Below are positions 10,591-24,518 of a DNA stretch of 24,518 nucleotides, in pieces. How positions within the stretch are numbered: the stretch's first letter is position 1; every line of letters begins with the position of its first letter. The notes under the pieces were generated by a model that was not told the DNA's origin, made no database searches, and saw only the letters and a program-made list of their open reading frames with translations. The stretch is from a virus (taxonomy: Duplodnaviria > Heunggongvirae > Uroviricota > Caudoviricetes): IMG/VR virus record IMGVR_UViG_2778261643_000010; one strand, written 5' to 3'. Both the position numbers and the translations under genes were made by a program.

Positions 10591-13500
10591 CTATATTTTT
10601 CCGCCTACGCCTTTAAACTTCTCAATAAACGAGACGATTTTCTGGAAAACTGCCTGTTTTTTCGTTTTATATTGCGGATTCAACGGACTAAGTTTTGGTA
10701 ATGTTTCGTTTAATTCTGTGCCATTTTCGGTGGCGTATTCGCGTTTTAAAGACGTGCGAATATAGCGTTTTGCTGCTTCTTCATTGAGGTTTTCTTCTTT
10801 TATCAATGCTTCTGCTTCACGTTGCTGTTCGCGTTGAGCAAACGTAAAGAATGCCTCAATGATACTGGCTTTGTCTGGTAAATCATCCAGGTTCGTTTGC
10901 TGAATAAAATCGACCACCAGGCCCTCTTTCGCCCGGTTTCCCAGGCTTGAACGAATTAAGCGTTTGACCTCTTCGATCATTTCGCCCTTGCCTTTATTTT
11001 GTCTGTTGTGTTCGAAAATCAGTCCAAGGATATAATCCAGGTTTATTTCCTGAGACTTCAGCAAATCGACCTCAAAAACTACATCATCCCAGTCAGTGGT
11101 TGATTTCTCTTTTTTCTCAGCTTCTTTCTCACGGCGCTGCCAGTCGCGAATATCGTTATAGGCAGAACGATAATCCTGAATCTTGCGATCAGCAGGGAGA
11201 CGAATTGTTTGCAATTCAGCGAACTTTTCATCATCCACATAATGTTCTGCTTTGAATTTTTCTACCGCAACAGGATCGCTAAGATCGATTTGTTGCAGGG
11301 CTTTTAGCGTGGCAAATTCATCATAGTTTTGCAGGATGTTCTCGGCACGCAGGTATTCGCCAAACAGTTTAACGAAGTCTTTCTTCTCTTTTTCACTTTC
11401 AATACTGGTAGGGTCAGGGAACCGTTGTTCCAGTTCTGAAACTACTGTCATGAAGCCGCGTTTAGCTTCACCAGTGGCAGCATCAGTAAAGCCTTCCATA
11501 TACTCTGCATAACTCTTTTCTAAAACCACATTTTTGGTATTTTTGTCACCAAACAGCGTTATGGCATCAATGGTTGAGCGTTCCAGATCCCGGAACGTGA
11601 CGATATTACCGAAGGTTTTAGTCGCGTCATAAATGCGGTTGGTGCGGGAGAATGCCTGCATCAGGCCGTGAAAACGCAAGTTTTTATCGACGAATAGCGT
11701 GTTCAATGTTGGAGCGTCGAAGCCGGTTAAAAACATCCCAACGACAATTAACAGATCGATATCCTGATTTTTAACCCGTTGGGCTAAATCACGATAGTAG
11801 TTCTGAAAACCGTTACTGTCGGTACTGAAGTTAGTTTTAAAATAGCTGTTATATTCACGAATTGCAGCGTCGAGAAACTCTTTAGCACTGCTGTCCATTG
11901 CGCTGGTATCAAAAGTTTCATCGGAAATTTCACCAATGGCATTTTGTTCTTCATTAGCGGCAAAGGAGAAGATTGTCGCAACACGTAGTGGTTTATAGGT
12001 AGCAGATTTATAAGCGGCTTCCTCTTGTAACCGTTTAAACGTCGCGTAATAGGCTTTCGCGGCATCCACGCTGCTCACTGCCAGCATGGCATTAAAACCT
12101 TTGGAGCCAGGGAAAGTACGGTGGGTTTTCTGGCGGAAGTTATTCAGGATATATTGCGTAATTTCCTGAATACGCATGGGATGAAGGAACGCCTGCTGAT
12201 TTTCAGCCGCACTCAGTTTTTTCTCGTCAGTTTCTGTCTCTAAAGACTTAAACTGTGGCCGCACATCGTTGTAGTCCACCTTGAATTTAAGCACTTTTTC
12301 ATCACGAATCGCATCGGTAATAACATATGAATGCAATTCACGGCCAAATACGCTGGCGGTCGTTTCTGAGCCTAAGGCGTTTTCCGGGAAAATAGGTGTG
12401 CCGGTAAAACCAAACTGATAATAGCGTTTGAATTTCTTCTTCAGGTTTTTCTGTGCTTCTCCAAACTGGCTGCGGTGACATTCATCAAATATAAACACCA
12501 CTTGCTGATTGTATACAGGCAGGTCGCTTTCTGCTTTCATCAGGTTATTAAGTTTCTGAATAGTGGTGACGATAATTTTGTTATCGTCCTTATCCAGATT
12601 TCGTTTAAGACCTGCGGTATTTTCCGAGCCGTTGACGCTGTCTGGCGAAAAACGCTGATATTCCTTCATGGTCTGGTAATCGAGGTCTTTCCTGTCGACC
12701 ACAAAGAAAACTTTATCAATAAAGTCCAGTTCTGTTGCCAGACGCGCGGCTTTAAAGCTGGTCAGGGTTTTACCGGAACCCGTGGTGTGCCAGATATACC
12801 CACCGCTTTCCGGTTTTGACCAGTTCTTCGCTGTAAAGGAGCTCTTAATTTTCCACAGAATGCGCTCGGTGGCGGCAATCTGGTACGGTCGCATCACCAG
12901 TAGCGTCTGACTACTGTCAAAAACGCTGTAGTTCACCAGAACATTCAGCAGAGTATGTTTCTGGAAAAAGGTAGCGGTAAAATCTTTGAGGTCTTTAATC
13001 AGCGTGTTGTCTGATTTCGCCCAGTTCATGGTGAAGTCAAAACTATTTTTATCGCGCTTTGTGGTGTTGGCAAAGTAACGGGTATCGGTGCCGTTAGAAA
13101 TGACAAACAGTTGCAGATACTTAAACAGGGAATTTTCGCTGTTAAAACTCTCTTTACTGTAACGATGTATCTGGTTGAAAGCCTCACGAATCGCCACGCC
13201 GCGCTTTTTCAGTTCGATTTGCACCAGAGGCAAGCCATTAACCAGGATAGTTACGTCATAACGGTTAGCGTGAGAACCTGCCTGTTCAAACTGCTGGATA
13301 ATCTGCACTTTGTTGCGCATGAGATTCTTTTTATCTATCAGATAGATGTTCTCAAGACGCCCGTCGTCAAAAATAAAGTCGCAAATATAGTCGATATGGA
13401 TTTTACGGGTCTTATCCAGAATGCCATCGCTCGGGTTGTCCAGATACTGCTCCGTGAAACGCCGCCACTCGCTGTCATTAAACACCACACCATTGAGGCT

Positions 13501-13707
13501 CTGAAGCTGTTCCCGAACATTGGACAGCATAGCCGACTGAGATTTTACGGATATAAATTCATAGCCCTGATTCCGCAGGTCCTGAATCAGTTCACGTTCC
13601 AGGTCCGATTCGCTCTGGTAGCTGTCGCCTGTTGGCTCAGCTTTGATGTACTTATCAAGGACGATAAAGTTATTGGATTCAGCAATAGTGTGTGTCTGAT
13701 GAGTCAT
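10591..13707 (-). CDS. hsdR: Type I restriction enzyme R subunit (HsdR), EcoR124-family (Type IC)
   Basis: Walker A motif [11 protein letters not shown] and DEAD-like [10 protein letters not shown] are present. The ORF track begins at 13767, but ATG 13707 ([11 protein letters not shown]) has an AAGGA ribosome-binding site and gives about 1038 aa, the length I recall for EcoR124I HsdR. Confidence 0.9.
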
Positions 13708-13828
13708 AGCGCATCCTTTGTGCCGTCTGGCAAGGGCCGGAAGGGAGTTAAGGGTGACTTCCGGCACGTAAAAAATAGTCTATATACAGACCGGATGTTA
13801 AGGTGGTCCGGTCGGTAGCAATGGTCAA

Positions 13829-15085
13829 TTAATTACTGACAGTTTCAGGTTTCGGGAAACTGAACAGTAAGTCACGATAGTACTCGTATTGTTTCTGGCG
13901 CAACTCGATTTCACGCGGGAGACCTTCGGTGATGGAGTTGGTCAGGGTGTCGAATTTATCGAGCAGAGCAGATATTCGCTCTTGTTTCTGTTTATCAGGC
14001 AATGGCACTGGTAATGTTTTTATAATATCTGCATTCAAGTTACTGACCGACCCGCTATTGATTTTACTTTCCCAATAATTTTTCACCTTTTTTGATGAAA
14101 GATAGTGATACAGATAATCAGCATTTAATTTTTCACCAAAATTGCTGATTGATGCCCATCCATCATGGATAGCTCCGGTTATCCTTAAAATATATGGTCT
14201 GCCAAAGCTCATAGAGTTAGAAATGACGAAATCACCGGGGTTCAAGATTCGCGATTTTTGGGCACCCTCTGCAGTTATTTTTTGTAAGGTTTTGTCAATG
14301 TATTTAGAGCCGGGGATAGTATCTCCGATTTTAATCCATGGGATACCATTTCCTTGTTCAGTAAGATAATTAACAATTGGCCTGGGGGATGCCCCACGTT
14401 GTATTTTGGCTACTTCTCCCAATGCCTTCCACTCAACCTCACCCTCTTTAAAACTCAGCAACTGGTCGCGATAGTAGTTGTACTGTTTTTTACGCATGTT
14501 AAGCTCAGCGGTAAGCTCAGCGGTAAGTGCAGTAAATTTGTCCAGAATCCGAACGATTTCAGACTGGATGGCGAGGGATTTTTCCGGATTATCCGGGCAG
14601 GGAATTGGGATGAGTAGTTTTGACATCAATGCATTTGAGCTTAGATTCGGTTGTGCTCCGCCCCCGGCGAGGATATAAATAGTCTCTGTATTTAACAATA
14701 AAAAATGGTATAAATAATTATTGTTTAGAATATTTTCTTTGGGTATGAATTTTCCAACCCGTTGGTTAAGATAACATTTTGTTCCTTTTTTATAAATTCC
14801 CACTTTTCCTGTAGTGGCACCTGACATTGCAATCAATATATTTCCCATAGATACCTCAAAGGAGGATAAATCTTCCTTGTAATCATTTAGTGAAAAGTAT
14901 TTCACCTCATCTAAGTCAACATTAAATCCATCTATATTTGTGATTCTAACTATCGGTAACCCAGTTTCTTTAAATAAGCTGCTTTTAAATGCAAATCCAT
15001 TTTTAAAATCACAAACATCCTTCAAGGGTTTCCACTCAACCTCAACCCCATCCAGCAATTTTTCCAGATAACTCAACTCGCTCAT
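13829..15085 (-). CDS. hsdS: Type I R-M specificity subunit (HsdS) with two target-recognition domains and a central TAEL-repeat region
   Basis: It has the conserved central block [54 protein letters not shown] and a conserved C-terminal block. The start overlaps the hsdM stop (ATGA). Confidence 0.9.
14501..14536. repeat. Two perfect 12-bp tandem repeats (AAGCTCAGCGGT) plus a degenerate third unit, encoding LTAEL-TAEL in hsdS
   Basis: Direct reading of 14501-14512 and 14513-14524, then the diverged unit AAGTGCAGTAAA. Confidence 0.85.
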
Positions 15086-16638
15086 TTCTGCACCTCGCAG
15101 CCTTCAATTTCAGCCACAATCGCATCAATATCTTTACGCAACTGGTCGATTTTGCTGACCGTGATTTTCAGCTCTGCATTCAACTCAGCGATATCGATAA
15201 TTTCGCGAGTATCTTTCGCTTCAACATAGCTGCTCACCGACAGGTTATAGTCATTAGCAACAACGGTCTCAAACGCGACTGATTTCGCCAGATGAGCAAC
15301 ATCTTCCTTGCTGGCAAATACCTGCATAATCTGTTCGATATGGGCATCGGTCAGGATATTGTTGTTGGTCTCTTTTTTGAATAGTTCGCTGGCGTCAATA
15401 AACTGAACTTTTGTATCTGTTTTATGTTTAGACAACACCAGAATGTTTACGGCAATGGTGGTGCCAAAGAACAGGTTCGGTGCCAGTGAAATCACGGTTT
15501 CGACATAGTTATTATCAACCAGATACTGACGGATTTTCTGCTCCGCGCCGCCACGGTAAAAAATACCCGGGAAGCAAACAATCGCAGCACGACCTTTGGC
15601 AGAAAGATAGTTCAGCGCATGTAGTACAAAGGCGAAGTCAGCTTTTGATTTGGGGGCCAGAACGCCAGCCGGGGCAAAACGTTCATCGTTAATCAGCGTC
15701 GGGTCATCGCTGCCAATCCATTTCACCGAATACGGCGGGTTAGAAACGATGGCATCAAACGGTTTTTCATCTCTGAAGTGTGGTTCAGTCAGCGTATTGC
15801 CCAGCTTGATATCAAACTTGTCGTAGTTGATGTTGTGCAAAAACATGTTCATACGCGCCAGGTTATAGGTCGTATGGTTGATTTCCTGACCAAAAAAACC
15901 TTCTTCGATGATATGGTCATCAAACTGTTTTTTAGCCTGCAACAACAGCGAACCGGAGCCTGCTGCCGGGTCGTAGATTTTGTTAACGTGGGTCTGCCCG
16001 TGCATAGCCAGTTGTGCAATCAGCTTAGAGACGTGCTGCGGTGTAAAGAACTCGCCGCCGGACTTACCGGCATTCGCGGCATAGTTAGAAATCAGGAACT
16101 CATAGGCGTCACCGAACAGATCAATCTGATGTTCGGTGAAGTCACCAAGTTTTAACCCTTCAACCCCTTTCAGAACCGCAGCCAGGCGGGCATTTTTATC
16201 TTTAACGGTGTTACCCAGGCGGTTACTGGTGGTATCGAAATCAGCAAACAAACCTTTGATGTCTGCTTCTGAAGGGTAGCCGTAAGCAGAACTTTCGATA
16301 GCAACGAAGATACTGTTTAAATCTGCATTCAGTCTGTCATTGGTATTTGCTTTCGCAGCTACGTTGCAGAAAAGCTGGCTTGGGTAGATGAAGTAGCCTT
16401 TGGTTTTGATGGCATCGTCTTTAATGTCATCAGTAATTACGCTGTCATCCAGTGCTGCATAACAGATGCTGTCATCATCGGCTTCCATATAGCTGGAAAA
16501 ATTTTCGCTGATAAAACGATAAAAAAGCGCGCCCAGAACGTACTGCTTAAAATCCCATCCATCGACTGAACCCCTGACATCGTTAGCAATTTGCCAGATC
16601 TGGCGATGAAGTTCTGCACGTTGTTGAATACTTGTCAT
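15082..16638 (-). CDS. hsdM: Type I R-M N6-adenine DNA methyltransferase (HsdM)
   Basis: Contains the AdoMet-binding motif [11 protein letters not shown] and the catalytic motif VSNPPYS. Confidence 0.9.
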
Positions 16639-16768
16639 TTTCTTCCACTTATTTCAGGCTTAAGTAATTGGCGGTGATTCTACAGCAACTTTGATGCTTT
16701 AGCAGTTCGGACATTAGGCAACGAATGACCTAATTAGAGCTTTTTGGAAAAGCGGTATTGTCGGTGCG

Positions 16769-16993
16769 ATGATAGCTATGTTTGGGTTCGCGATGGTGCA
16801 ATACAATGACGGTGAAAAGGTAAGCATCCAGTCTGATGGCTGGTATGGGCTGGATAGCCTGCAAAAAACCGCAGATAAAGCCTGTCAGCAATATGGAAAG
16901 TCTAAAGCCGTATATCAGCATAGCGCGAACGCTAATCCACATCTCGCGCCCGGCACGGGCGTTCAGAACACTATTTGGAAATGCGAACCATAA
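16769..16993 (+). CDS. Hypothetical small protein (74 aa)
   Basis: ORF only; no clear ribosome-binding site. It overlaps an antisense ORF (16730-16942), so the coding status is uncertain. Confidence 0.25.
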   Translation: MIAMFGFAMVQYNDGEKVSIQSDGWYGLDSLQKTADKACQQYGKSKAVYQHSANANPHLAPGTGVQNTIWKCEP

Positions 16994-17176
16994 CGCAGGT
17001 TGGCTTTTTACATCTTGGGCCGAATACTGATTCCGCGCTAAGTTGTTTGTGCGGAAGTGACACTGTGGAGCTTAGAAATAGTAAATACTGGTGGGCAACA
17101 AATTGAGCCTTCACACGCTCACCAGCACACACAAAAAATGGTTAAACAGCAAGGGAATTAATATCTCAGCGCGACA

Positions 17177-17314
17177 TTAAATAAGCCAGCGCACGCCTCT
17201 GTTTATCACTGACTTGAAAAACCATATCAGAACCACGATGAAGACAATCGCCAGCACTTGGCTAAGAACAGGCGCATTTAAAAATGCACTTAGAAACTGA
17301 AAAAATACAATCAT
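17177..17314 (-). CDS. Candidate small membrane protein (45 aa, MIVFFQFLSAFLNAPVLSQVLAIVFIVVLIWFFKSVINRGVRWLI)
   Basis: Has GAGGA eight nt upstream of the ATG and is strongly hydrophobic. It lies in an otherwise gene-poor spacer. Confidence 0.3.
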   Translation of the reverse strand: MIVFFQFLSAFLNAPVLSQVLAIVFIVVLIWFFKSVINRGVRWLI

Positions 17315-17782
17315 CAGGGTAATCCTCGTCAAATGTAAAGCTGTGTGCTCTCACGTTGACGTAGAAACCCAACCTCTATATAGTTGGATTCGGTGAAAGA
17401 AAGTCGTTAACGTGAACTTACGGCACATGTTTTCGGTATAAAAATCAGGGAACTGTGAATTCCTTGATGTAGTTGGGGCCTGTAATGCAGGCCCTATCTA
17501 TTAATGTCATGATTACATCTCAAATTTTCTCCTTATCATTATTATTTAATAAAATTCAATTAATAAAATATCCATTTCCTGTGTGTGCAAACACAGTATG
17601 AGGAAAATGGCCTCGTTGCAAGTGCATAACTTTGTGGATAACTCTGAAGGCGAATTTACATTTCGGCGCACCGCAAGCCAGATAAGCTGTGCGCAAAAAG
17701 CAATGGGGTGAGAAAAAAACTTTGAAGATATTGCGGCGACTAAATAATAGCCGTTATTCAATTATTCTGGATGGGATTTAAT

Positions 17783-18022
17783 ATGAACGAATGGAACATA
17801 GCAGCCAAAAGCCAGGAAGAAAGGAATAAAGTTAACGTTGACCTGGCTGCCAGGGGGGTTGCCTACAAAGAGCGATTGAACATACCTGTCATAGCTGAAC
17901 AGGTAGCCCGCGAGCAACCAGAGAATCTGCGCACCTATTTCATGGAACGTCTACGGCACTACCGGCAGTTAAGCCTCCAGTTGCCAAAAGGGAACGATCC
18001 GGCATATCAGAAAACAGAATAG
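17783..18022 (+). CDS. hot: Homolog of DNA polymerase III theta subunit (HolE-like; P1 Hot-like)
   Basis: [42 protein letters not shown] closely parallels E. coli theta as I remember it. The annotated ORF starts at 17771; ATG 17783 is preferred. Confidence 0.75.
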
Positions 18023-18033
18023 TTGTTAGGCTA

Positions 18034-18396
18034 TTACGCAATGCCCGCGCCATTCATAGCGGGTTTTAAGCCATATTCACCGTTGTAGAAATTACTCATG
18101 TTCCATTCATTGGGAAGCTCTTTTCTGTCCAATGTATAGTGGCGTACGATATAACGATCTTCATCTTCTTCGATGGACAGGCGGACATAGCCAATGTGAA
18201 TTACCGATACGGGCGGCGTCCGTATTGCATAGATGTCGCGGAGATATACCGGTAGCTCGACAAATGCGTCAGGTGCATCTGTGATGCTCATTTTTTCACA
18301 GTATTCATATAACGCATCGTTGATATCGTTAAGAGATTCATGATCGTATATTTCCAGGTAATTACCGCGATCGCGATGGTACTCGATTTTAGCCAT
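18034..18396 (-). CDS. Hypothetical protein (120 aa)
   Basis: ORF whose start abuts the stop of the upstream gene at 18397, so the two form an operon. Confidence 0.5.
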   Translation of the reverse strand: MAKIEYHRDRGNYLEIYDHESLNDINDALYEYCEKMSITDAPDAFVELPVYLRDIYAIRTPPVSVIHIGYVRLSIEEDEDRYIVRHYTLDRKELPNEWNMSNFYNGEYGLKPAMNGAGIA

Positions 18397-18981
18397 TCAA
18401 AATCCCCTGTTATCGTTTTGCATTTCTCTAATCCGGTTCAGAACTACTTCATGCTGGGCTTGGATAGCGGCTTTTTCGTTTTCAAGTCGGGCAATAGACA
18501 TCTCTAATTCTTTGCTGTACCAGGCGAGTTGGGCCAGGTTCATCCGGTTGTGGTCGAGAGTTGGAGACACTTCGACGCGATCCCTTTCTTCCTGCTTTAA
18601 TGAGAAGAGATTCATCTCATCCCTAGAGGAAAATTCAGCAACAATTTCTTGTTGATGATCCGGTCGCTGCGGCATCCTCGCCAGTATAAATGGCGGTTCT
18701 TTTGAAAACATGAATGTCGGTTCATAACGTGTTTTTACCCAGCTTGCCTGCTGTCTTTCGGCAAGTTCACAGGCTTCATCATAGTTATTTGCCAAACCAA
18801 GCACGGATGGACGGTCCCACGCCCCACCATTCAGACAATAAACTACAATTTTCCCGTCAGGTTGTGTAACCCCATATGGATGGTCCCACCAGGCGTCCAA
18901 CTGAGCTTTAGAGCGTTTCTCGTTAGGAGTGCAGTCAAAATTTTTGGGCAATACAGGATCGAGAGGAATGCGGGCAGGCAT
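18397..18981 (-). CDS. Hypothetical protein (194 aa), divergent from humD
   Basis: ORF with a C-terminal predicted coiled coil. Confidence 0.5.
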   Translation of the reverse strand: MPARIPLDPVLPKNFDCTPNEKRSKAQLDAWWDHPYGVTQPDGKIVVYCLNGGAWDRPSVLGLANNYDEACELAERQQASWVKTRYEPTFMFSKEPPFILARMPQRPDHQQEIVAEFSSRDEMNLFSLKQEERDRVEVSPTLDHNRMNLAQLAWYSKELEMSIARLENEKAAIQAQHEVVLNRIREMQNDNRGF

Positions 18982-19116
18982 AGCTAATTCCTTATTAACT
19001 GATTGGCAACGAGGTTACGCTGATCCGTTGGTGATGAATAGTAGCAAAGCGCACAAAATCATCTGCGGTGGTTGATGTACATAACGCGTTTGCACCAAAG
19101 GTGTCTCTTTAATGTA

Positions 19117-19136
19117 TGCTGTATAAATGAACAGTA
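19117..19136. promoter_or_regulatory. LexA (SOS) box TGCTGTATAAATGAACAGTA
   Basis: A perfect CTGT-N8-ACAG core overlapping a TATAAA -10-like hexamer, 20 bp upstream of the humD start. Confidence 0.75.
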
Positions 19137-19155
19137 TTATTGAGGTGAAAACGCT

Positions 19156-19545
19156 ATGGGCTTCCCTTCTCCTGCGGCGGATTATGTTGAAAGCAGAATT
19201 TCTCTTGATCAGCAACTAATCAGGCATCCATCAGCGACCTACTTCATGCGGGCGGCAGACAGCCATCACCGCGAGGGAATATTGCAGGGTGCTTTGCTGG
19301 TGGTTGATTCTTCGCTTACTCCAGTTGATGGTTCGCTGCTTGTGTGCGCTATGGAGGGTGAATATCGCATAAAGAGATACCGAAAGTATCCGCGCCAGCA
19401 CCTGGAGGATTTAAGCACCGGGAAGAAAGAGGCGTTACCAGTAGATGACGATGGTTACACGGGCAGTAATGCTGTTTTTGGTGTGATCACTCATGTCATC
19501 AATGATGCCCGAAGTGGGGAATTTGATGATTGTCCGGTTATTTAA
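19156..19545 (+). CDS. humD: UmuD'-like S24 peptidase-fold protein
   Basis: The N-terminus GFPSPAADYVE...LIRHPSATYF is the signature of the UmuD/MucA/ImpA family. GAGGTG ribosome-binding site. Confidence 0.8.
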   Translation: MGFPSPAADYVESRISLDQQLIRHPSATYFMRAADSHHREGILQGALLVVDSSLTPVDGSLLVCAMEGEYRIKRYRKYPRQHLEDLSTGKKEALPVDDDGYTGSNAVFGVITHVINDARSGEFDDCPVI

Positions 19546-19585
19546 GCTGCAAAGTGCTGGTGCTTTATGCCTGTGAAGTTTATAA

Positions 19586-19610
19586 TTGTGTACACATAAC
19601 GAGTACACGA
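19586..19610. promoter_or_regulatory. Putative Phd/Doc autoregulatory operator (10-bp palindrome TGTGTACACA plus GTACAC half-site) beside a TATAAT -10
   Basis: Perfect palindrome directly downstream of TATAAT (19581-19586). Confidence 0.45.
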
Positions 19611-19617
19611 GGTGTTT

Positions 19618-19839
19618 ATGCAATCCATTAACTTCCGTACCGCGCGCGGCAACCTTTCTGAAGTGCTCAACAATGTTGAAGCCGGGGAAGAGGTTGAAAT
19701 CACCCGCAGAGGCCGTGAGCCAGCAGTAATTGTCAGCAAGGCTACTTTTGAAGCCTACAAAAAAGCGGCGCTGGATGCTGAATTTGCATCCCTGTTTGAC
19801 ACCCTGGACTCCACCAACAAGGAACTGGTTAACCGATAA
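19618..19839 (+). CDS. phd: Phd antitoxin (prevent-host-death), 73 aa
   Basis: [41 protein letters not shown] is the Phd/YefM fold and appears near-identical to P1 Phd from memory. TAATG overlap with doc. Confidence 0.9.
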
Positions 19840-20219
19840 TGAGGCATATATCACCGGAAGAACTTATTGCGCTTCATGATGCGAATATAAACCGCTACGG
19901 CGGCTTGCCGGGAATGTCAGATCCGGGTAGGGCAGAGGCCATTATCGGGAGAGTTCAGGCCAGAGTTGCCTACGAAGAGATCACCGACCTTTTCGAAGTC
20001 TCCGCCACCTACCTGGTGGCTACAGCGAGAGGGCATATATTCAATGATGCCAATAAGCGTACCGCGCTAAACAGTGCGCTGTTATTTCTACGCCGTAACG
20101 GGGTGCAGGTATTTGATTCACCTGAACTGGCAGACCTTACCGTAGGGGCTGCGACCGGAGAGATATCTGTATCTTCTGTCGCCGACACGTTACGTAGATT
20201 GTATGGTTCCGCGGAGTAG
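19839..20219 (+). CDS. doc: Doc toxin (Fic-fold kinase), 126 aa
   Basis: Contains the Fic-type motif [11 protein letters not shown]. Same size and position as P1 Doc. Confidence 0.9.
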
Positions 20220-20223
20220 ATTA

Positions 20224-20403
20224 ATGGCACGTAAATACAACAAATTGTCCCGTGAAGCGTTAAAGATGCTTCTTGATGGCGTGAGTCGCCGCGAGGTAAA
20301 GCAATACCTGGTTGGTAAGCAAATTGGTGCCAGGACCGCTATTGCTGTGTTATGCCGTCAGGAAATGGTTGTGCTTAAACAGAGAATGCCGGGCAGCAGA
20401 TAA
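20224..20403 (+). CDS. Small basic hypothetical protein (60 aa), in the position of the P1 post-doc gene
   Basis: ORF with GCGGAG upstream of the ATG. Confidence 0.4.
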   Translation: MARKYNKLSREALKMLLDGVSRREVKQYLVGKQIGARTAIAVLCRQEMVVLKQRMPGSR

Positions 20404-20430
20404 AGCCCAATCAGTGATTAAAGGTGTGAT

Positions 20431-21474
20431 GTGAAAGCCGTAATTACTCCATTTGTACAGAAAGAGCTTGGCCTCGCCACGTTCAAAGTGGACCAGGAGG
20501 TCAGAAAGCTGGTGGAGGCTGGCCGTAAATTTATTATGGAGCCGGTGCCGCGTGAGTTAATCGAGCACATGGACGACGGCCTCGTTGTTTCCGAGCAAAC
20601 TATGGCAACAAATGAGGCGTTGCAGCCGTTTTTTAACAGCGATGAACTGTTTCGCCGTATTGGTGGAATTGACTCGCTGGTGGCGTGGTTGCGCAGGAAA
20701 GAGGGGCAATGCCAGGCCGCAGATCGTAGTTGGTGTGACAACCATATTGTCCACGCTGAACGAGACAATAGCGCGGTGTTGTTGTGCTGGCATCACGATA
20801 ACCATTACCGGATGCGTGGTTTTAATGAGCTGAAAGAAACGCTGCATAATAATCGCGTTAACTGGATACTGGATGTCGCCCGTCAGGAAATGGGGCTTTC
20901 AGATGGCCATGATTTAAGTATTCAGGAACTGTGCTGGTGGGCTTTCATGCGCAACATGATGCACCTGATGCCGGAAGAAGTCTGCCGCATATCAATAAAT
21001 AAGATGAAGGCTACTCCGCAGGATAGCGGACCTCTGAAAGAGGCGGATATTCGCCCGTATGACGATCGCGCTATAGCATATGTTCAGATGATGGAAGAAC
21101 GCGCCGCGCCGATGCGTGCAAAAGTATGTCCTGTGGATGTTGACTCCGACCCAGGTATGGCGCATTTCAAAATACCAAAACTTCAATCGCTAAAATTACC
21201 TGAGTACATGGACTTTGTTGCTTCCCGTCCATGCTGTGGCTGTGGAGCTGCGGGAGCTGGCGCTCACATTACGCCTTATATCGTTCGTCATAGTCGATTA
21301 TGCGCGCATGACATTTATGCTATTCCTCTGTGCCAGTCATGCCAGCGTGATATTGAGCGTGACCGCGATAATTGGGAGAAAACACACGGTAGGCTGGCGA
21401 TGCATCAACGATTGTTCTTTGATTACGCGCTTGGAGTCGGCGCTATCACAAGTCACTCGTCGAGCGTTAGATAA
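20431..21474 (+). CDS. Cysteine-rich hypothetical protein (347 aa), in the position of the P1 post-doc genes
   Basis: GTG start with AAGGTG ribosome-binding site. Contains [12 protein letters not shown] and CQSCQ motifs. Confidence 0.5.
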
Positions 21475-21475
21475 A

Positions 21476-21492
21476 ATTGCTCTAATGTATTG
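21476..21492 (+). promoter_or_regulatory. C1 operator-like 17-mer ATTGCTCTAATGTATTG overlapping a candidate promoter (TTGCTA -35, TATTAT -10)
   Basis: Matches the consensus at 14 of 17 positions and sits upstream of the putative lpa. Confidence 0.45.
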
Positions 21493-21562
21493 CTATTTAT
21501 TTAATCGAGGGTATTATATTCCACGTTGATTAGTTGACATGGGCTAATCAGTAGGTGACAGG

Positions 21563-22015
21563 ATGTTACTTAACTGGCAGGGACGCCACTTCATGGAAAT
21601 AAATCACTCACGAATAACATCGTACGAGATTGCGGATTACATGATCCGCACTAAATCTCTTCTATCAGCGAAAGAACTCGCAGCAATTCTTGAAAAGGAA
21701 TACCCGCATCTGGATGTCGATAAGCGCGATGTTTATCTGCGCTTAAAGGCTATCGCTGTGTCTAAGTATTCGTCTGTTTTGATTGATGACAGTACACGCC
21801 CACGTAGATTTCAGATCCACTCTCTGAATCCTGAATTCTTTCGCCGTAGCCGCGCTCCGCGCCGGTTTGATGAAAAACTCCAGAACGAACTCTATATGAC
21901 GCAGGACGAAAAGGAACGCCGGGAGCACCAGCCTTGGGTAATGGCGCGTCAACTTTTCAATAAGGTGGCCCGTCAGCACCGTCATTACGGTAATGCCACA
22001 TCCGCACGTATCTGA
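21563..22015 (+). CDS. lpa: Putative late promoter activator (assigned by synteny only); start may be ATG at 21593
   Basis: A 150-aa ORF between the doc-distal genes and pacA, which is where P1 carries lpa as I recall. No motif-level support. Confidence 0.45.
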   Translation: MLLNWQGRHFMEINHSRITSYEIADYMIRTKSLLSAKELAAILEKEYPHLDVDKRDVYLRLKAIAVSKYSSVLIDDSTRPRRFQIHSLNPEFFRRSRAPRRFDEKLQNELYMTQDEKERREHQPWVMARQLFNKVARQHRHYGNATSARI

Positions 22016-22100
22016 TTGATTGCTTGCCCGTTCCGGGCCTTTTGACATGTGACTTTCGTTACCCTCGCGTCAAAAAGAGTTTTTACGAAAGGAAGCATAA

Positions 22101-23294
22101 GTGACCTGGGACGATCACAAAAAGAATTTTGCTCGCCTGGCGCGAGATGGTGGTTACACCATCGCACAGTATGCCGCCGAGTTTAATCTTAACCCTAATA
22201 CCGCACGTCGTTATCTCCGTGCCTTCAAAGAAGACACCAGGACTGCGGACAGCCGCAAGCCAAATAAGCCAGTCAGGAAGCCACTAAAAAGCATGATCAT
22301 TGATCACTCTAATGATCAACATGCAGGTGATCATATTGCGGCTGAAATAGCGGAAAAACAGAGAGTTAATGCCGTTGTCAGTGCCGCAGTCGAGAATGCG
22401 AAGCGCCAAAATAAGCGCATAAATGATCGTTCAGATGATCATGACGTGATCACCCGCGCCCGCCGGACCTTACGTGATCGCCTGGAACGCGACACCCTGG
22501 ATGATGATGGTGAACGCTTTGAATTCGAAGCTGGCGATTACCTGATAGATAACGTTGAAGCGCGGAAGGCCGCGCGCGCTATGTTGCGTCGGTCCGGGGC
22601 TGATGTTCTGGAAACCACTCTTCTGGAAAAGTCTCTCTCTCATCTCCTTATGCTGGAGAACGCCAGGGATACGTGTATTCGCCTGGTGCAGGAAATTCGC
22701 GATCAGCAAAAAGACGATGATGAAGGAACTCCGCCTGAATACCGTATCGCGAGCATGCTAAACAGCTGTTCCGCGCAGATAAGCAGTCTGATCAACACCA
22801 TTTACAGCATCCGGAATAACTATCGAAAAGAAAGCCGGGAGGCGGAAAAGCACGCTTTATCTATGGGGCAAGCTGGCATTGTTAAGCTGGCATACGAACG
22901 AAAGCGTGAAAATAACTGGTCAGTGCTGGAAGCAGCTGAATTCATCGAGGCGCATGGCGGGAAAGTGCCGCCCCTGATGCTGGAGCAAATCAAAGCCGAT
23001 CTGCGTGCTCCTAAGACCAATACCGATGATGAGGAAAGGCAAACAGCCGTCGGTGGCCCTTCTCTTGAAGATCTGGACAAAGTTGCGCGAGAACGGGCCG
23101 CCAACCGCCGCGCCGATGCCGCATTGTGGATTGAGCAGCGTAGGGAAGAAATCGCCGATATCGTTGATACAGGCGGTTATGGAGATGTTGATACTGAAGG
23201 TGTATCAAACGACCCATGGCTGGAACAAGACCTGGACGAAGACGAGGAGGAAGACGAAGAAGTTACCCGCAAGCTATACGGGGATGATGATTAA
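22101..23294 (+). CDS. pacA: Terminase small subunit / pac-recognition protein PacA
   Basis: GTG start with AGGAAG ribosome-binding site. The N-terminus [38 protein letters not shown] matches what I recall of P1 PacA. The pac hexamer cluster lies inside the gene. Confidence 0.85.
22294..22452 (+). promoter_or_regulatory. pac packaging site: four TGATCA hexamers (22294, 22301, 22313, 22328) and three TGATCA/G (22424, 22436, 22447) flanking the presumed cleavage region
   Basis: Direct reading gives seven Dam GATC sites in a 4+3 arrangement, the architecture described for P1 pac. Confidence 0.8.
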
Positions 23295-24493
23295 TGGCCA
23301 GAAGTTGCGTAACGGATCCACGTTGGCGCGAGCTGGTGGCGCTATATCGTTATGACTGGATTGCTGCCGCTGATGTTTTGTTCGGCAAAACACCTACCTG
23401 GCAGCAGGATCTGATTATTGAGTCTGTGCAGGAACAGGGTAGCAAGACATCTGTTTCGTCTGGTCACGGTACCGGGAAATCAGACATGACTTCTATCATG
23501 ATCATGTTGTTCATAATCATGTATCCCGGTGCCCGCGCCATTATCGTTGCGAACAAAATTCAGCAGGTAATGACCGGTATATTCAAGTACATCAAGATAA
23601 ACTGGGCTACTGCCACCAGCCGTTTTCCATGGCTTGCTGATTATTTTGTTCTGACAGAAACCGCTTTCTATGAGGTTACTGGTAAAGGTGTATGGACTGT
23701 AGTACCGAAGGGCTTTCGTCTGGGAAGTGAAGAAGCTCTCGCCGGTGAACACGCAGATCATCTTCTGTATATTATCGATGAAGCCTCCGGTGTCAGTGAT
23801 AGAGCTTTCGGTATCATCACCGGTGCTCTTACCGGACAGGATAACCGCATCTTATTACTGTCACAGCCTACACGCCCAAGCGGCTATTTCTACGATACTC
23901 ACCATAAACTGGCCAAGCGTCCTGGTAACCCAGATGGCGTTTATACGGCGATCACGCTTAACAGTGAGGAATCACCGCTGGTAACGCCAGAATTTATCAA
24001 AATGAAGCTGGCGGAGTACGGCGGGCGTGATAACCCTATGTACATGATTAAGGTGCGTGGCCTATTCCCTAAATCACAGGACGGCTTCCTTCTTGGACGT
24101 GATGAGGTTGAACGTGCAACGCGGCGGAAAGTTAAGATTGCCAAAGGATGGGGCTGGCTTGCATGTGTGGACGTTGCTGGTGGTACGGGACGGGATAAGT
24201 CAGTTATCAATATCATGATGGTGTCCGGCCAGCGAAATAAACGCCGTGTAATCAACTATCGAATGCTGGAATACACAGACGTTACAGAAACGCAGCTTGC
24301 CGCCAAAATTTTCGCAGAATGTAATCCTGAGCGATTCCCAAATATCACCATAGCGATAGACGGCGATGGCCTGGGTAAAGCAACGGCGGATCTGATGTAC
24401 GAGTATTATGGTATTACCGTACAGCGTATACGCTGGGGTAAAAAGATGCATAGCCCTGATGAATCCCCTAATGATTTTTATCAAAATCATTAA
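23294..24493 (+). pseudogene. pacB: Terminase large subunit PacB, truncated by IS10; native sequence ends at 24455 and the last 12 codons plus stop are IS-derived
   Basis: Walker A GHGTGKS and Walker [10 protein letters not shown] are present. The coding sequence runs into CTGATGAATCCCC at 24456. TAATG overlap with pacA. Confidence 0.8.
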
Positions 24494-24518
24494 GTTAAGG
24501 TAGATACACATCTTGTCA
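24456..24518 (+). mobile_element. IS10 outside-end fragment; terminus at 24456, element body extends rightward out of the window
   Basis: Begins CTGATGAATCCCCTAATGATTTTTATCAAAATCATTAAGTTAAGGTAGATACACATCTTGTCA, which is the IS10 outside end as I recall it. Confidence 0.8.

Follow-up and report, generated by a model that had tools for sequence, protein, structure and literature searches.

The humD locus and its setting

Does the 20 bp box directly 5' of humD in a P1-like phage-plasmid serve as an operator for the host LexA repressor and, if it does, is it an operator of humD alone or also of the gene pair that is transcribed away from it on the other side of the same gap? The question is raised here by a stretch of DNA of 24,518 nucleotides (IMG/VR virus record IMGVR_UViG_2778261643_000010), called the window throughout, which comes from a P1/P7-like phage-plasmid. 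The region is 96–98% identical to phages P1, P7, and SJ46 and to many P1-like plasmids, and positions 10000-24518 are essentially identical to the E. coli plasmids NZ_CP122822.1 and NZ_MN510446.1.

The gene order is hot (17771-18022, + strand), an upf93.6-like gene (-), an lxr/upf94.2-like gene (-), humD (+), phd, doc, pdcA, and pdcB (Table 1). An initial sequence-only reading of the window had described a gap of 174 bp between humD and a leftward pair at 18034-18981 starting at 18981, and the coordinates of the open reading frames bear this out. The two leftward open reading frames abut as TGA-ATG, with the stop codon of the first gene running directly into the start codon of the second, which fits an operon.

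Table 1. Features of the humD region, in window coordinates, with the evidence for each
Feature	Position	Strand	Evidence or remark
Leftward gene 2, Upf93.6-like, 120 aa	18034-18396	-	Homology; PHROG 5797
Leftward gene 1, Lxr / Upf94.2-like, 194 aa	18397-18981	-	Homology to P1 and P7 proteins
Divergent intergenic region, 174 bp	18982-19155		Between leftward start 18981 and humD start 19156
Candidate -35, TTGCAC, of inferred humD promoter	19090-19095	+	Conserved TT(G/T)CAC at a fixed 19 nt from the -10 candidate
Candidate -10, TATGCT, of inferred humD promoter	19115-19120	+	Conserved; overlaps box positions 1-4
Predicted LexA operator (SOS box), TGCTGTATAAATGAACAGTA	19117-19136	none	Sequence, matrix score, P1/P7 annotation, conservation
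Alternative -10-like TATAAA	19122-19127	+	Inside the box; candidate of the sequence-only reading
-10-like TATTAT	19135-19140	+	Overlaps the box
Shine-Dalgarno-like GAGGTG for humD	19142-19147	+	19142-19146 conserved in 89-98% across relatives
humD, 129 aa, stand-alone pre-truncated UmuD'-like	19156-19545	+	Peptidase_S24; alignment to UmuD'

The box is a rediscovery of a long-annotated feature, since the homologous 20-mer is marked in the records of both P1 and P7. In P1 (AF234172, 87545-87564) it is a protein_bind feature, "LexA binding site in the regulatory region of lxr and humD", and the leftward gene is named lxr, "LexA regulated function". In P7 (AF503408, 94404-94423) it is annotated "LexA; regulation of humD expression". 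The site is at the same position relative to humD in both phages, where the 174 bp gap is 95–98% identical to that of the window, and the order of hot, lxr, humD, phd, doc, pdcA, and pdcB is also the same. The window differs from both in having G and not A at box position 2, and in carrying hot, as P1 does, together with upf93.6, as P7 does.

Sequence and strength of the LexA box

The box reads TGCTGTATAAATGAACAGTA and has the perfect CTGT-N8-ACAG core that the sequence-only reading had given it; its description there as a canonical LexA box directly before humD is correct and agrees with the GenBank annotation of P1 and P7. It is a 20 bp sequence of the TACTGT-(AT)4-ACAGTA type, with four mismatches to TACTGTATATATATACAGTA, all outside of the CTGT/ACAG core, and its end is 20 nt before the start codon of humD. 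Box position 2 (19118) is a G here (TGCTGT), found in only 2 of the 46 unique upstream sequences described below; P1 and P7 have A there, and with G the LexA score is about 2 bits lower (22.5 vs 24.4).

There is a single CTGT-N8-ACAG match in the 24.5 kb window, at this site. The bare core is weak evidence when taken alone, because at least one match is found in 21 of 100 dinucleotide-preserving shuffles of the window. The whole site is far more distinctive. On a symmetrised LexA matrix made from 20 E. coli sites known from the literature, a rough and uncurated guide, TGCTGTATAAATGAACAGTA scores 21.7 bits, which is comparable to the E. coli sites themselves (13.4–26.6 bits). The next-best match in the window reaches 9.7 bits and the maximum over 200 window shuffles is 17.0 bits.

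The 20-mer is not a chance occurrence. The frequency of the bare core in shuffled sequence is what could be said for a chance palindrome, or for a relic without a regulatory role, but either is extremely improbable given that the full site scores above all 200 shuffles, that its core is invariant over 88 humD loci and 17 box variants, and that a box is also present in six other phage lineages.

Conservation of the box across humD loci

The window was compared with 87 other humD loci, these being P1, P7, five plasmids or phages, and 80 IMG/VR contigs. A perfect CTGT-N8-ACAG is present in all 88, 36–39 nt before the ATG. There are 17 variants of the box among them, and every variant that was scored lies between 20.8 and 29.0 bits. 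When the loci are reduced to 46 unique upstream sequences, none of the eight core columns varies, against five of the eight in the spacer; elsewhere in 19084-19155, 21 of 64 columns are invariant. The invariance of all eight core columns has a hypergeometric p of 3.6e-4, although the sequences are related and the value is hence indicative only. A core that is kept in every locus while its spacer drifts is the pattern expected of a functional operator. The SOS control of humD that the sequence-only reading had thought probable is therefore strongly supported by comparison, both within these loci and through the boxes of other lineages, and the box, which is real and conserved, is almost certainly functional.

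Stand-alone umuD'-like genes are found in six other temperate phage lineages (N15, phiKO2, HK639, BTP1, Aeromonas pAEv1818, and Hafnia yong1), with products 45–70% identical to HumD at the amino acid level. As with humD, these genes, which include N15 gp26 and phiKO2 gp23, have a LexA box, and in each of the six lineages it scores 19.6–27.4 bits and is 34–64 nt before the start. There is no upstream similarity between these and humD beyond the LexA box, and their promoter sequences are unrelated to that of humD. The neighbours differ as well, being tail fibre, integrase, or sopB genes in the other lineages and lxr and phd-doc in the case of humD. M/V-(G/E)-FPSPA is the beginning of the protein in five of the lineages, the exception being pAEv1818, whose annotated start is five codons upstream of the equivalent ASPAADYVE.

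The humD module is present in 684 of 5,426 complete E. coli genomes, and 690 of its 708 places are on plasmids. Being this common in E. coli, it would add to the capacity for damage-induced mutagenesis in many clinical and animal isolates. The box itself matters little beyond annotation, as this is the standard P1/P7 arrangement, with a ready-made UmuD' analogue under what would be host SOS control.

HumD and the proposed mode of control

HumD of the window is 99–100% identical to HumD of P1 and P7. It carries a Peptidase_S24 domain (PF00717, E = 5.7e-9) and matches the UmuD' structure 1umu with E = 2.4e-23. In alignment, residue 2 of HumD falls on residue 1 of UmuD' (1umu) and on residue 25 of full-length UmuD (8gmt_B), so that the protein begins at the Cys24/Gly25 cleavage position of UmuD. 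There is no adjacent umuC, the genes after humD being phd and doc. This alignment would mean that HumD is made directly in the form that UmuD reaches after RecA-stimulated cleavage. McLenigan and colleagues are said to have found in 1999 that HumD complements UmuD' function and that it is poorly expressed in vivo.

The umuD gene of E. coli K-12 has a strong LexA box, TACTGTATATAAAAACAGTA, at a distance from the ATG similar to that at humD, and the two products belong to the same protein family. Outside of the box, however, there is no sequence homology between the umuDC operator-promoter and that of humD. Unlike umuDC, humD has no umuC beside it and encodes the already shortened UmuD' form, which would mean that the post-translational RecA checkpoint of E. 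coli umuDC is missing.

It is very probable, from the strength, conservation, and position of the box, that host LexA represses humD in undamaged lysogens and that RecA-stimulated self-cleavage of LexA releases it. In the undamaged lysogen, a LexA dimer on the box would cover the core promoter of humD and block RNA polymerase. DNA damage would activate RecA, LexA would cleave itself, and humD would be transcribed. HumD would then skip the RecA-dependent cleavage that normally delays the activation of UmuD; since it needs no processing, LexA repression would be its only visible SOS checkpoint. The protein may then pair with host UmuC, itself SOS-induced, in translesion synthesis. Between humD and phd-doc the search found no terminator-like site, and transcription may to some extent read through into these genes.

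The box with its strength, conservation, and linkage to humD, and the UmuD'-like character of HumD, are observed; in this scheme we infer the occupancy of the box by LexA, the promoter hexamers with their start point, and the induction of humD. A literature search that covered part of the P1 and humD papers found no direct measurement of LexA binding or of damage induction for humD, and one paper that calls humD LexA-regulated rests on the citation of a umuDC study. In a study of P1 (PMC4713147), a LexA site is mentioned only at the coi promoter, and humD was used in rt-qPCR as a gene outside C1 control.

Promoter geometry around the box

There are three -10-like hexamers overlapping the box, and a conserved TTGCAC is found 19 nt upstream of one of them. 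The humD promoter is most likely made up of TTGCAC, the 19 nt spacer, and TATGCT, with the start point inside the box. A transcript starting here would have the conserved GAGGTG in its leader. The match to consensus is weak, with 3/6 positions at -35, a spacer of 19 nt, and 4/6 positions at -10 in the window. Among the 46 unique sequences, the -10 candidate is TATACT in 43, TATGCT in two (including the window), and TGTACT in P1. The A-to-G change at box position 2 turns TATACT into TATGCT in the window, a weaker -10 match; the P1 form loses the key A.

A standard sigma-70 scan of 18700-19400 found no promoter, and a looser home-made scan of the gap returned background-level candidates only, so that none is assignable from the sequence alone. 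Whichever of the hexamers is used, a LexA dimer on the box would cover the -10/+1 region. Comparison within gaps of the lxr type adds little as a form of footprinting, the sequences being too alike to be informative.

The overlap of the box with a -10-like hexamer, as proposed in the sequence-only reading, stands in so far as TATAAA does lie inside the box, but this hexamer varies among relatives, where TACAGA, TATGAA, TATGGA, and TGTAAA are found. It also has no -35 partner at 16–18 nt, and was rejected as a conserved -10. TATTAT has the best scan score but was judged unlikely, because the start point would then fall downstream of the conserved Shine-Dalgarno sequence. A terminator-like hairpin at 19092-19104 is not kept in other upstream contexts and was also set aside.

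Against a proximal promoter is the GenBank record of P1, which predicts a promoter, PhumD, about 480 nt upstream, inside lxr. Its sequence is identical in the window, at 18652-18678. Were humD transcribed from PhumD, LexA bound about 440 nt downstream would be a roadblock that hinders elongation and not initiation. Such an arrangement is very improbable. PhumD is itself only predicted, with a poor -10 (CATCCT), and a terminator-like hairpin (18678-18696, +) comes directly after it, so that humD mRNA is unlikely to stem from PhumD. Furthermore, the PhumD segment is absent from the approximately 40 hot-type loci, and these still have the module that runs from TT(G/T)CAC to the box. A promoter next to the box, blocked directly by LexA, is therefore preferred to PhumD.

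Which gene the box serves

The sequence 5' of humD is not the same in all of the 88 loci. In about 40 of them the upstream gene is hot, on the same strand and without lxr, and in about 40 it is a divergent lxr-type gene, with or without upf93.6. Two loci have a toprim-domain gene, and in a few the sequence is of another kind. In at least five upstream contexts (lxr-type, two hot-type, toprim-type, and other) the box is kept with humD. Across these contexts homology starts abruptly just upstream of TT(G/T)CAC, which is followed by a variable stretch of 12 nt and then by a conserved TTTAATGTATACTGT and the box, the spacing being constant. In a plasmid search, distant relatives match only positions 125-174 of the query, equivalent to 19106-19155 of the window. 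This abrupt shared start and the restricted matches of the distant relatives would suggest that the segment from about 19083/19085 to 19155 behaves as a portable humD promoter-operator module. The remainder of the gap, 18982 to about 19082, is present only together with the lxr cassette.

The converse comparison was made with lxr genes that are not beside humD. In the 260 nt before full-length Lxr orthologues (58–70% identity) at loci without humD, from Salmonella (L099/L100), a further locus (L101), and E. albertii (L102), there is no LexA-like site, and there is no box upstream of the short-form Lxr relatives on Klebsiella phage-plasmids and on Pseudomonas/Xanthomonas plasmids (L088-L097). 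In none of these contexts, therefore, is a LexA box kept by the leftward gene. That the box is kept without lxr in about half of the humD loci, and is absent at lxr without humD, indicates that it belongs to humD, and its association with lxr appears to result from the two being neighbours. The sequence-only reading had the region shared with the leftward operon. This holds in the sense that the gap, with one box between the divergent starts at 18981 (-) and 19156 (+), is physically common to both sides, but the comparison ties the box to humD only.

An operator that works in both directions has a precedent in E. coli, where the divergent pair uvrA-ssb shares one LexA box. As at uvrA-ssb, there is one box between divergent genes in the window; the comparison of humD loci, however, does not link the leftward genes to it. 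With such an operator, the same LexA dimer would repress a leftward promoter, and the SOS response would induce the lxr-like and upf93.6-like pair along with humD. Both the P1 gene name lxr and the sequence-only reading imply this, and the P1 record places the site in the regulatory region of both genes. The record of phiKO2 likewise has an annotated LexA binding site between divergent dinI-like and umuD-like genes. The best leftward promoter match in the gap, TTCACC (19149-19144), 18 nt, and TATACA (19125-19120), would have its -10 inside the box; it scores 6.5, however, and matches of at least 6 occur about eight times per kb per strand in the window. The box is also 136 nt from the start codon of the lxr-like gene. 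When these are taken with the humD loci that keep the box without lxr, and with the Lxr orthologues and short-form relatives that have no box without humD, control of the leftward pair is possible but rather doubtful.

Two tentative explanations can be put forward. The segment of approximately 70 bp from TT(G/T)CAC to the box might be a self-contained portable cassette that moves with humD, in which case the P1 name lxr is perhaps a misnomer. Alternatively the box might be bidirectional, making the two-gene module SOS-inducible only in the P1/P7 arrangement. Assignment of the operator to a portable humD cassette is a small refinement of the existing annotation, and would mean that the box says little for SOS regulation of lxr-type genes.

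In the P1-like plasmid of E. albertii (L102, CP070291.2) humD and the box are both missing and the lxr orthologue directly faces phd-doc, which shows that the humD cassette can be lost whole. Elsewhere in a P1-like plasmid of Salmonella (L099) there is a strong LexA box, TACTGTGTTTTCATACAGTA, at 4832-4851 (23.8 bits), 16 nt upstream of a gene encoding 88 aa (4550-4816, -). In this relative, which has no humD, the gene is apparently an SOS-controlled cargo gene in its own right.

The leftward proteins

The 194 aa protein is 94% identical to Lxr of P1 and 97% identical to Upf94.2 of P7. The lxr gene of P1 encodes 190 aa, and the C-terminal end of its product differs from that of the window protein. 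No Pfam, NCBIfam, or PADLOC family was found for the 194 aa protein, which belongs to a PHROG of unknown function. Its N-terminal domain of about 110 aa is strongly conserved, with the motifs IPLDP.LP..FD.TPN, WWDHP, CLNGGAWDR, and QRPD, and also stands alone as proteins of approximately 130–140 aa on diverse plasmids. The domain constitutes an unnamed family with invariant WWD.P, CLNGG.WDR, and QRPD; its members carry the NCBI label "DNA-binding protein", which no model underlies. On Klebsiella phage-plasmids the short forms adjoin a HEPN/Toprim gene, and on the plasmids of Pseudomonas and Xanthomonas they are flanked by a gene for a 67 aa protein and a resolvase.

To this domain the P1-type Lxr adds a long C-terminal helix (AlphaFold2 model, pLDDT 86.5); the protein has a coiled coil. 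Fold searches with the model of the 194 aa protein gave no significant match; there was a recurrent weak local likeness, over about 50 residues, to the three-stranded-sheet DNA-binding domains of the AP2/ERF and integrase-N types. The 120 aa Upf93.6-like protein is small and acidic and is a member of PHROG 5797, of unknown function, with few relatives. Its model is poor (pLDDT 62.8), too poor for a fold search. Both lxr and humD were non-essential for lytic growth of P1 in a CRISPRi screen (PMC10695390).

Sequences flanking the locus

The window is a mosaic at 17771-18981, where hot, which is P1-like, is combined with upf93.6, which is P7-like and is missing in P1. The two genes are found together in only 4 of the 88 humD loci. 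Upstream of hot, at 17577-17598, there is an inverted repeat, CTGTGTGTGCAAACACAG, the spacing of which is CTGT-N10-ACAG, so that it is not LexA-like. In P1 the counterpart of this area has an annotated late promoter and a DnaA-box-like sequence. A search of the whole window against Rfam found no RNA family.

A complete type I restriction-modification operon is present at 10591-16638 (-). Its three open reading frames, of 1058, 418, and 518 aa, are annotated as HsdR, S, and M in the matching plasmids. The operon is about 1.1 kb upstream of hot, on the side where P1 has pmgT-upfO, which would suggest that the defence cargo of this P1-like element is a different one. In the P1 record, the humD-doc region is noted to resemble what is found upstream of the plasmid-borne EcoDXXI hsd locus.
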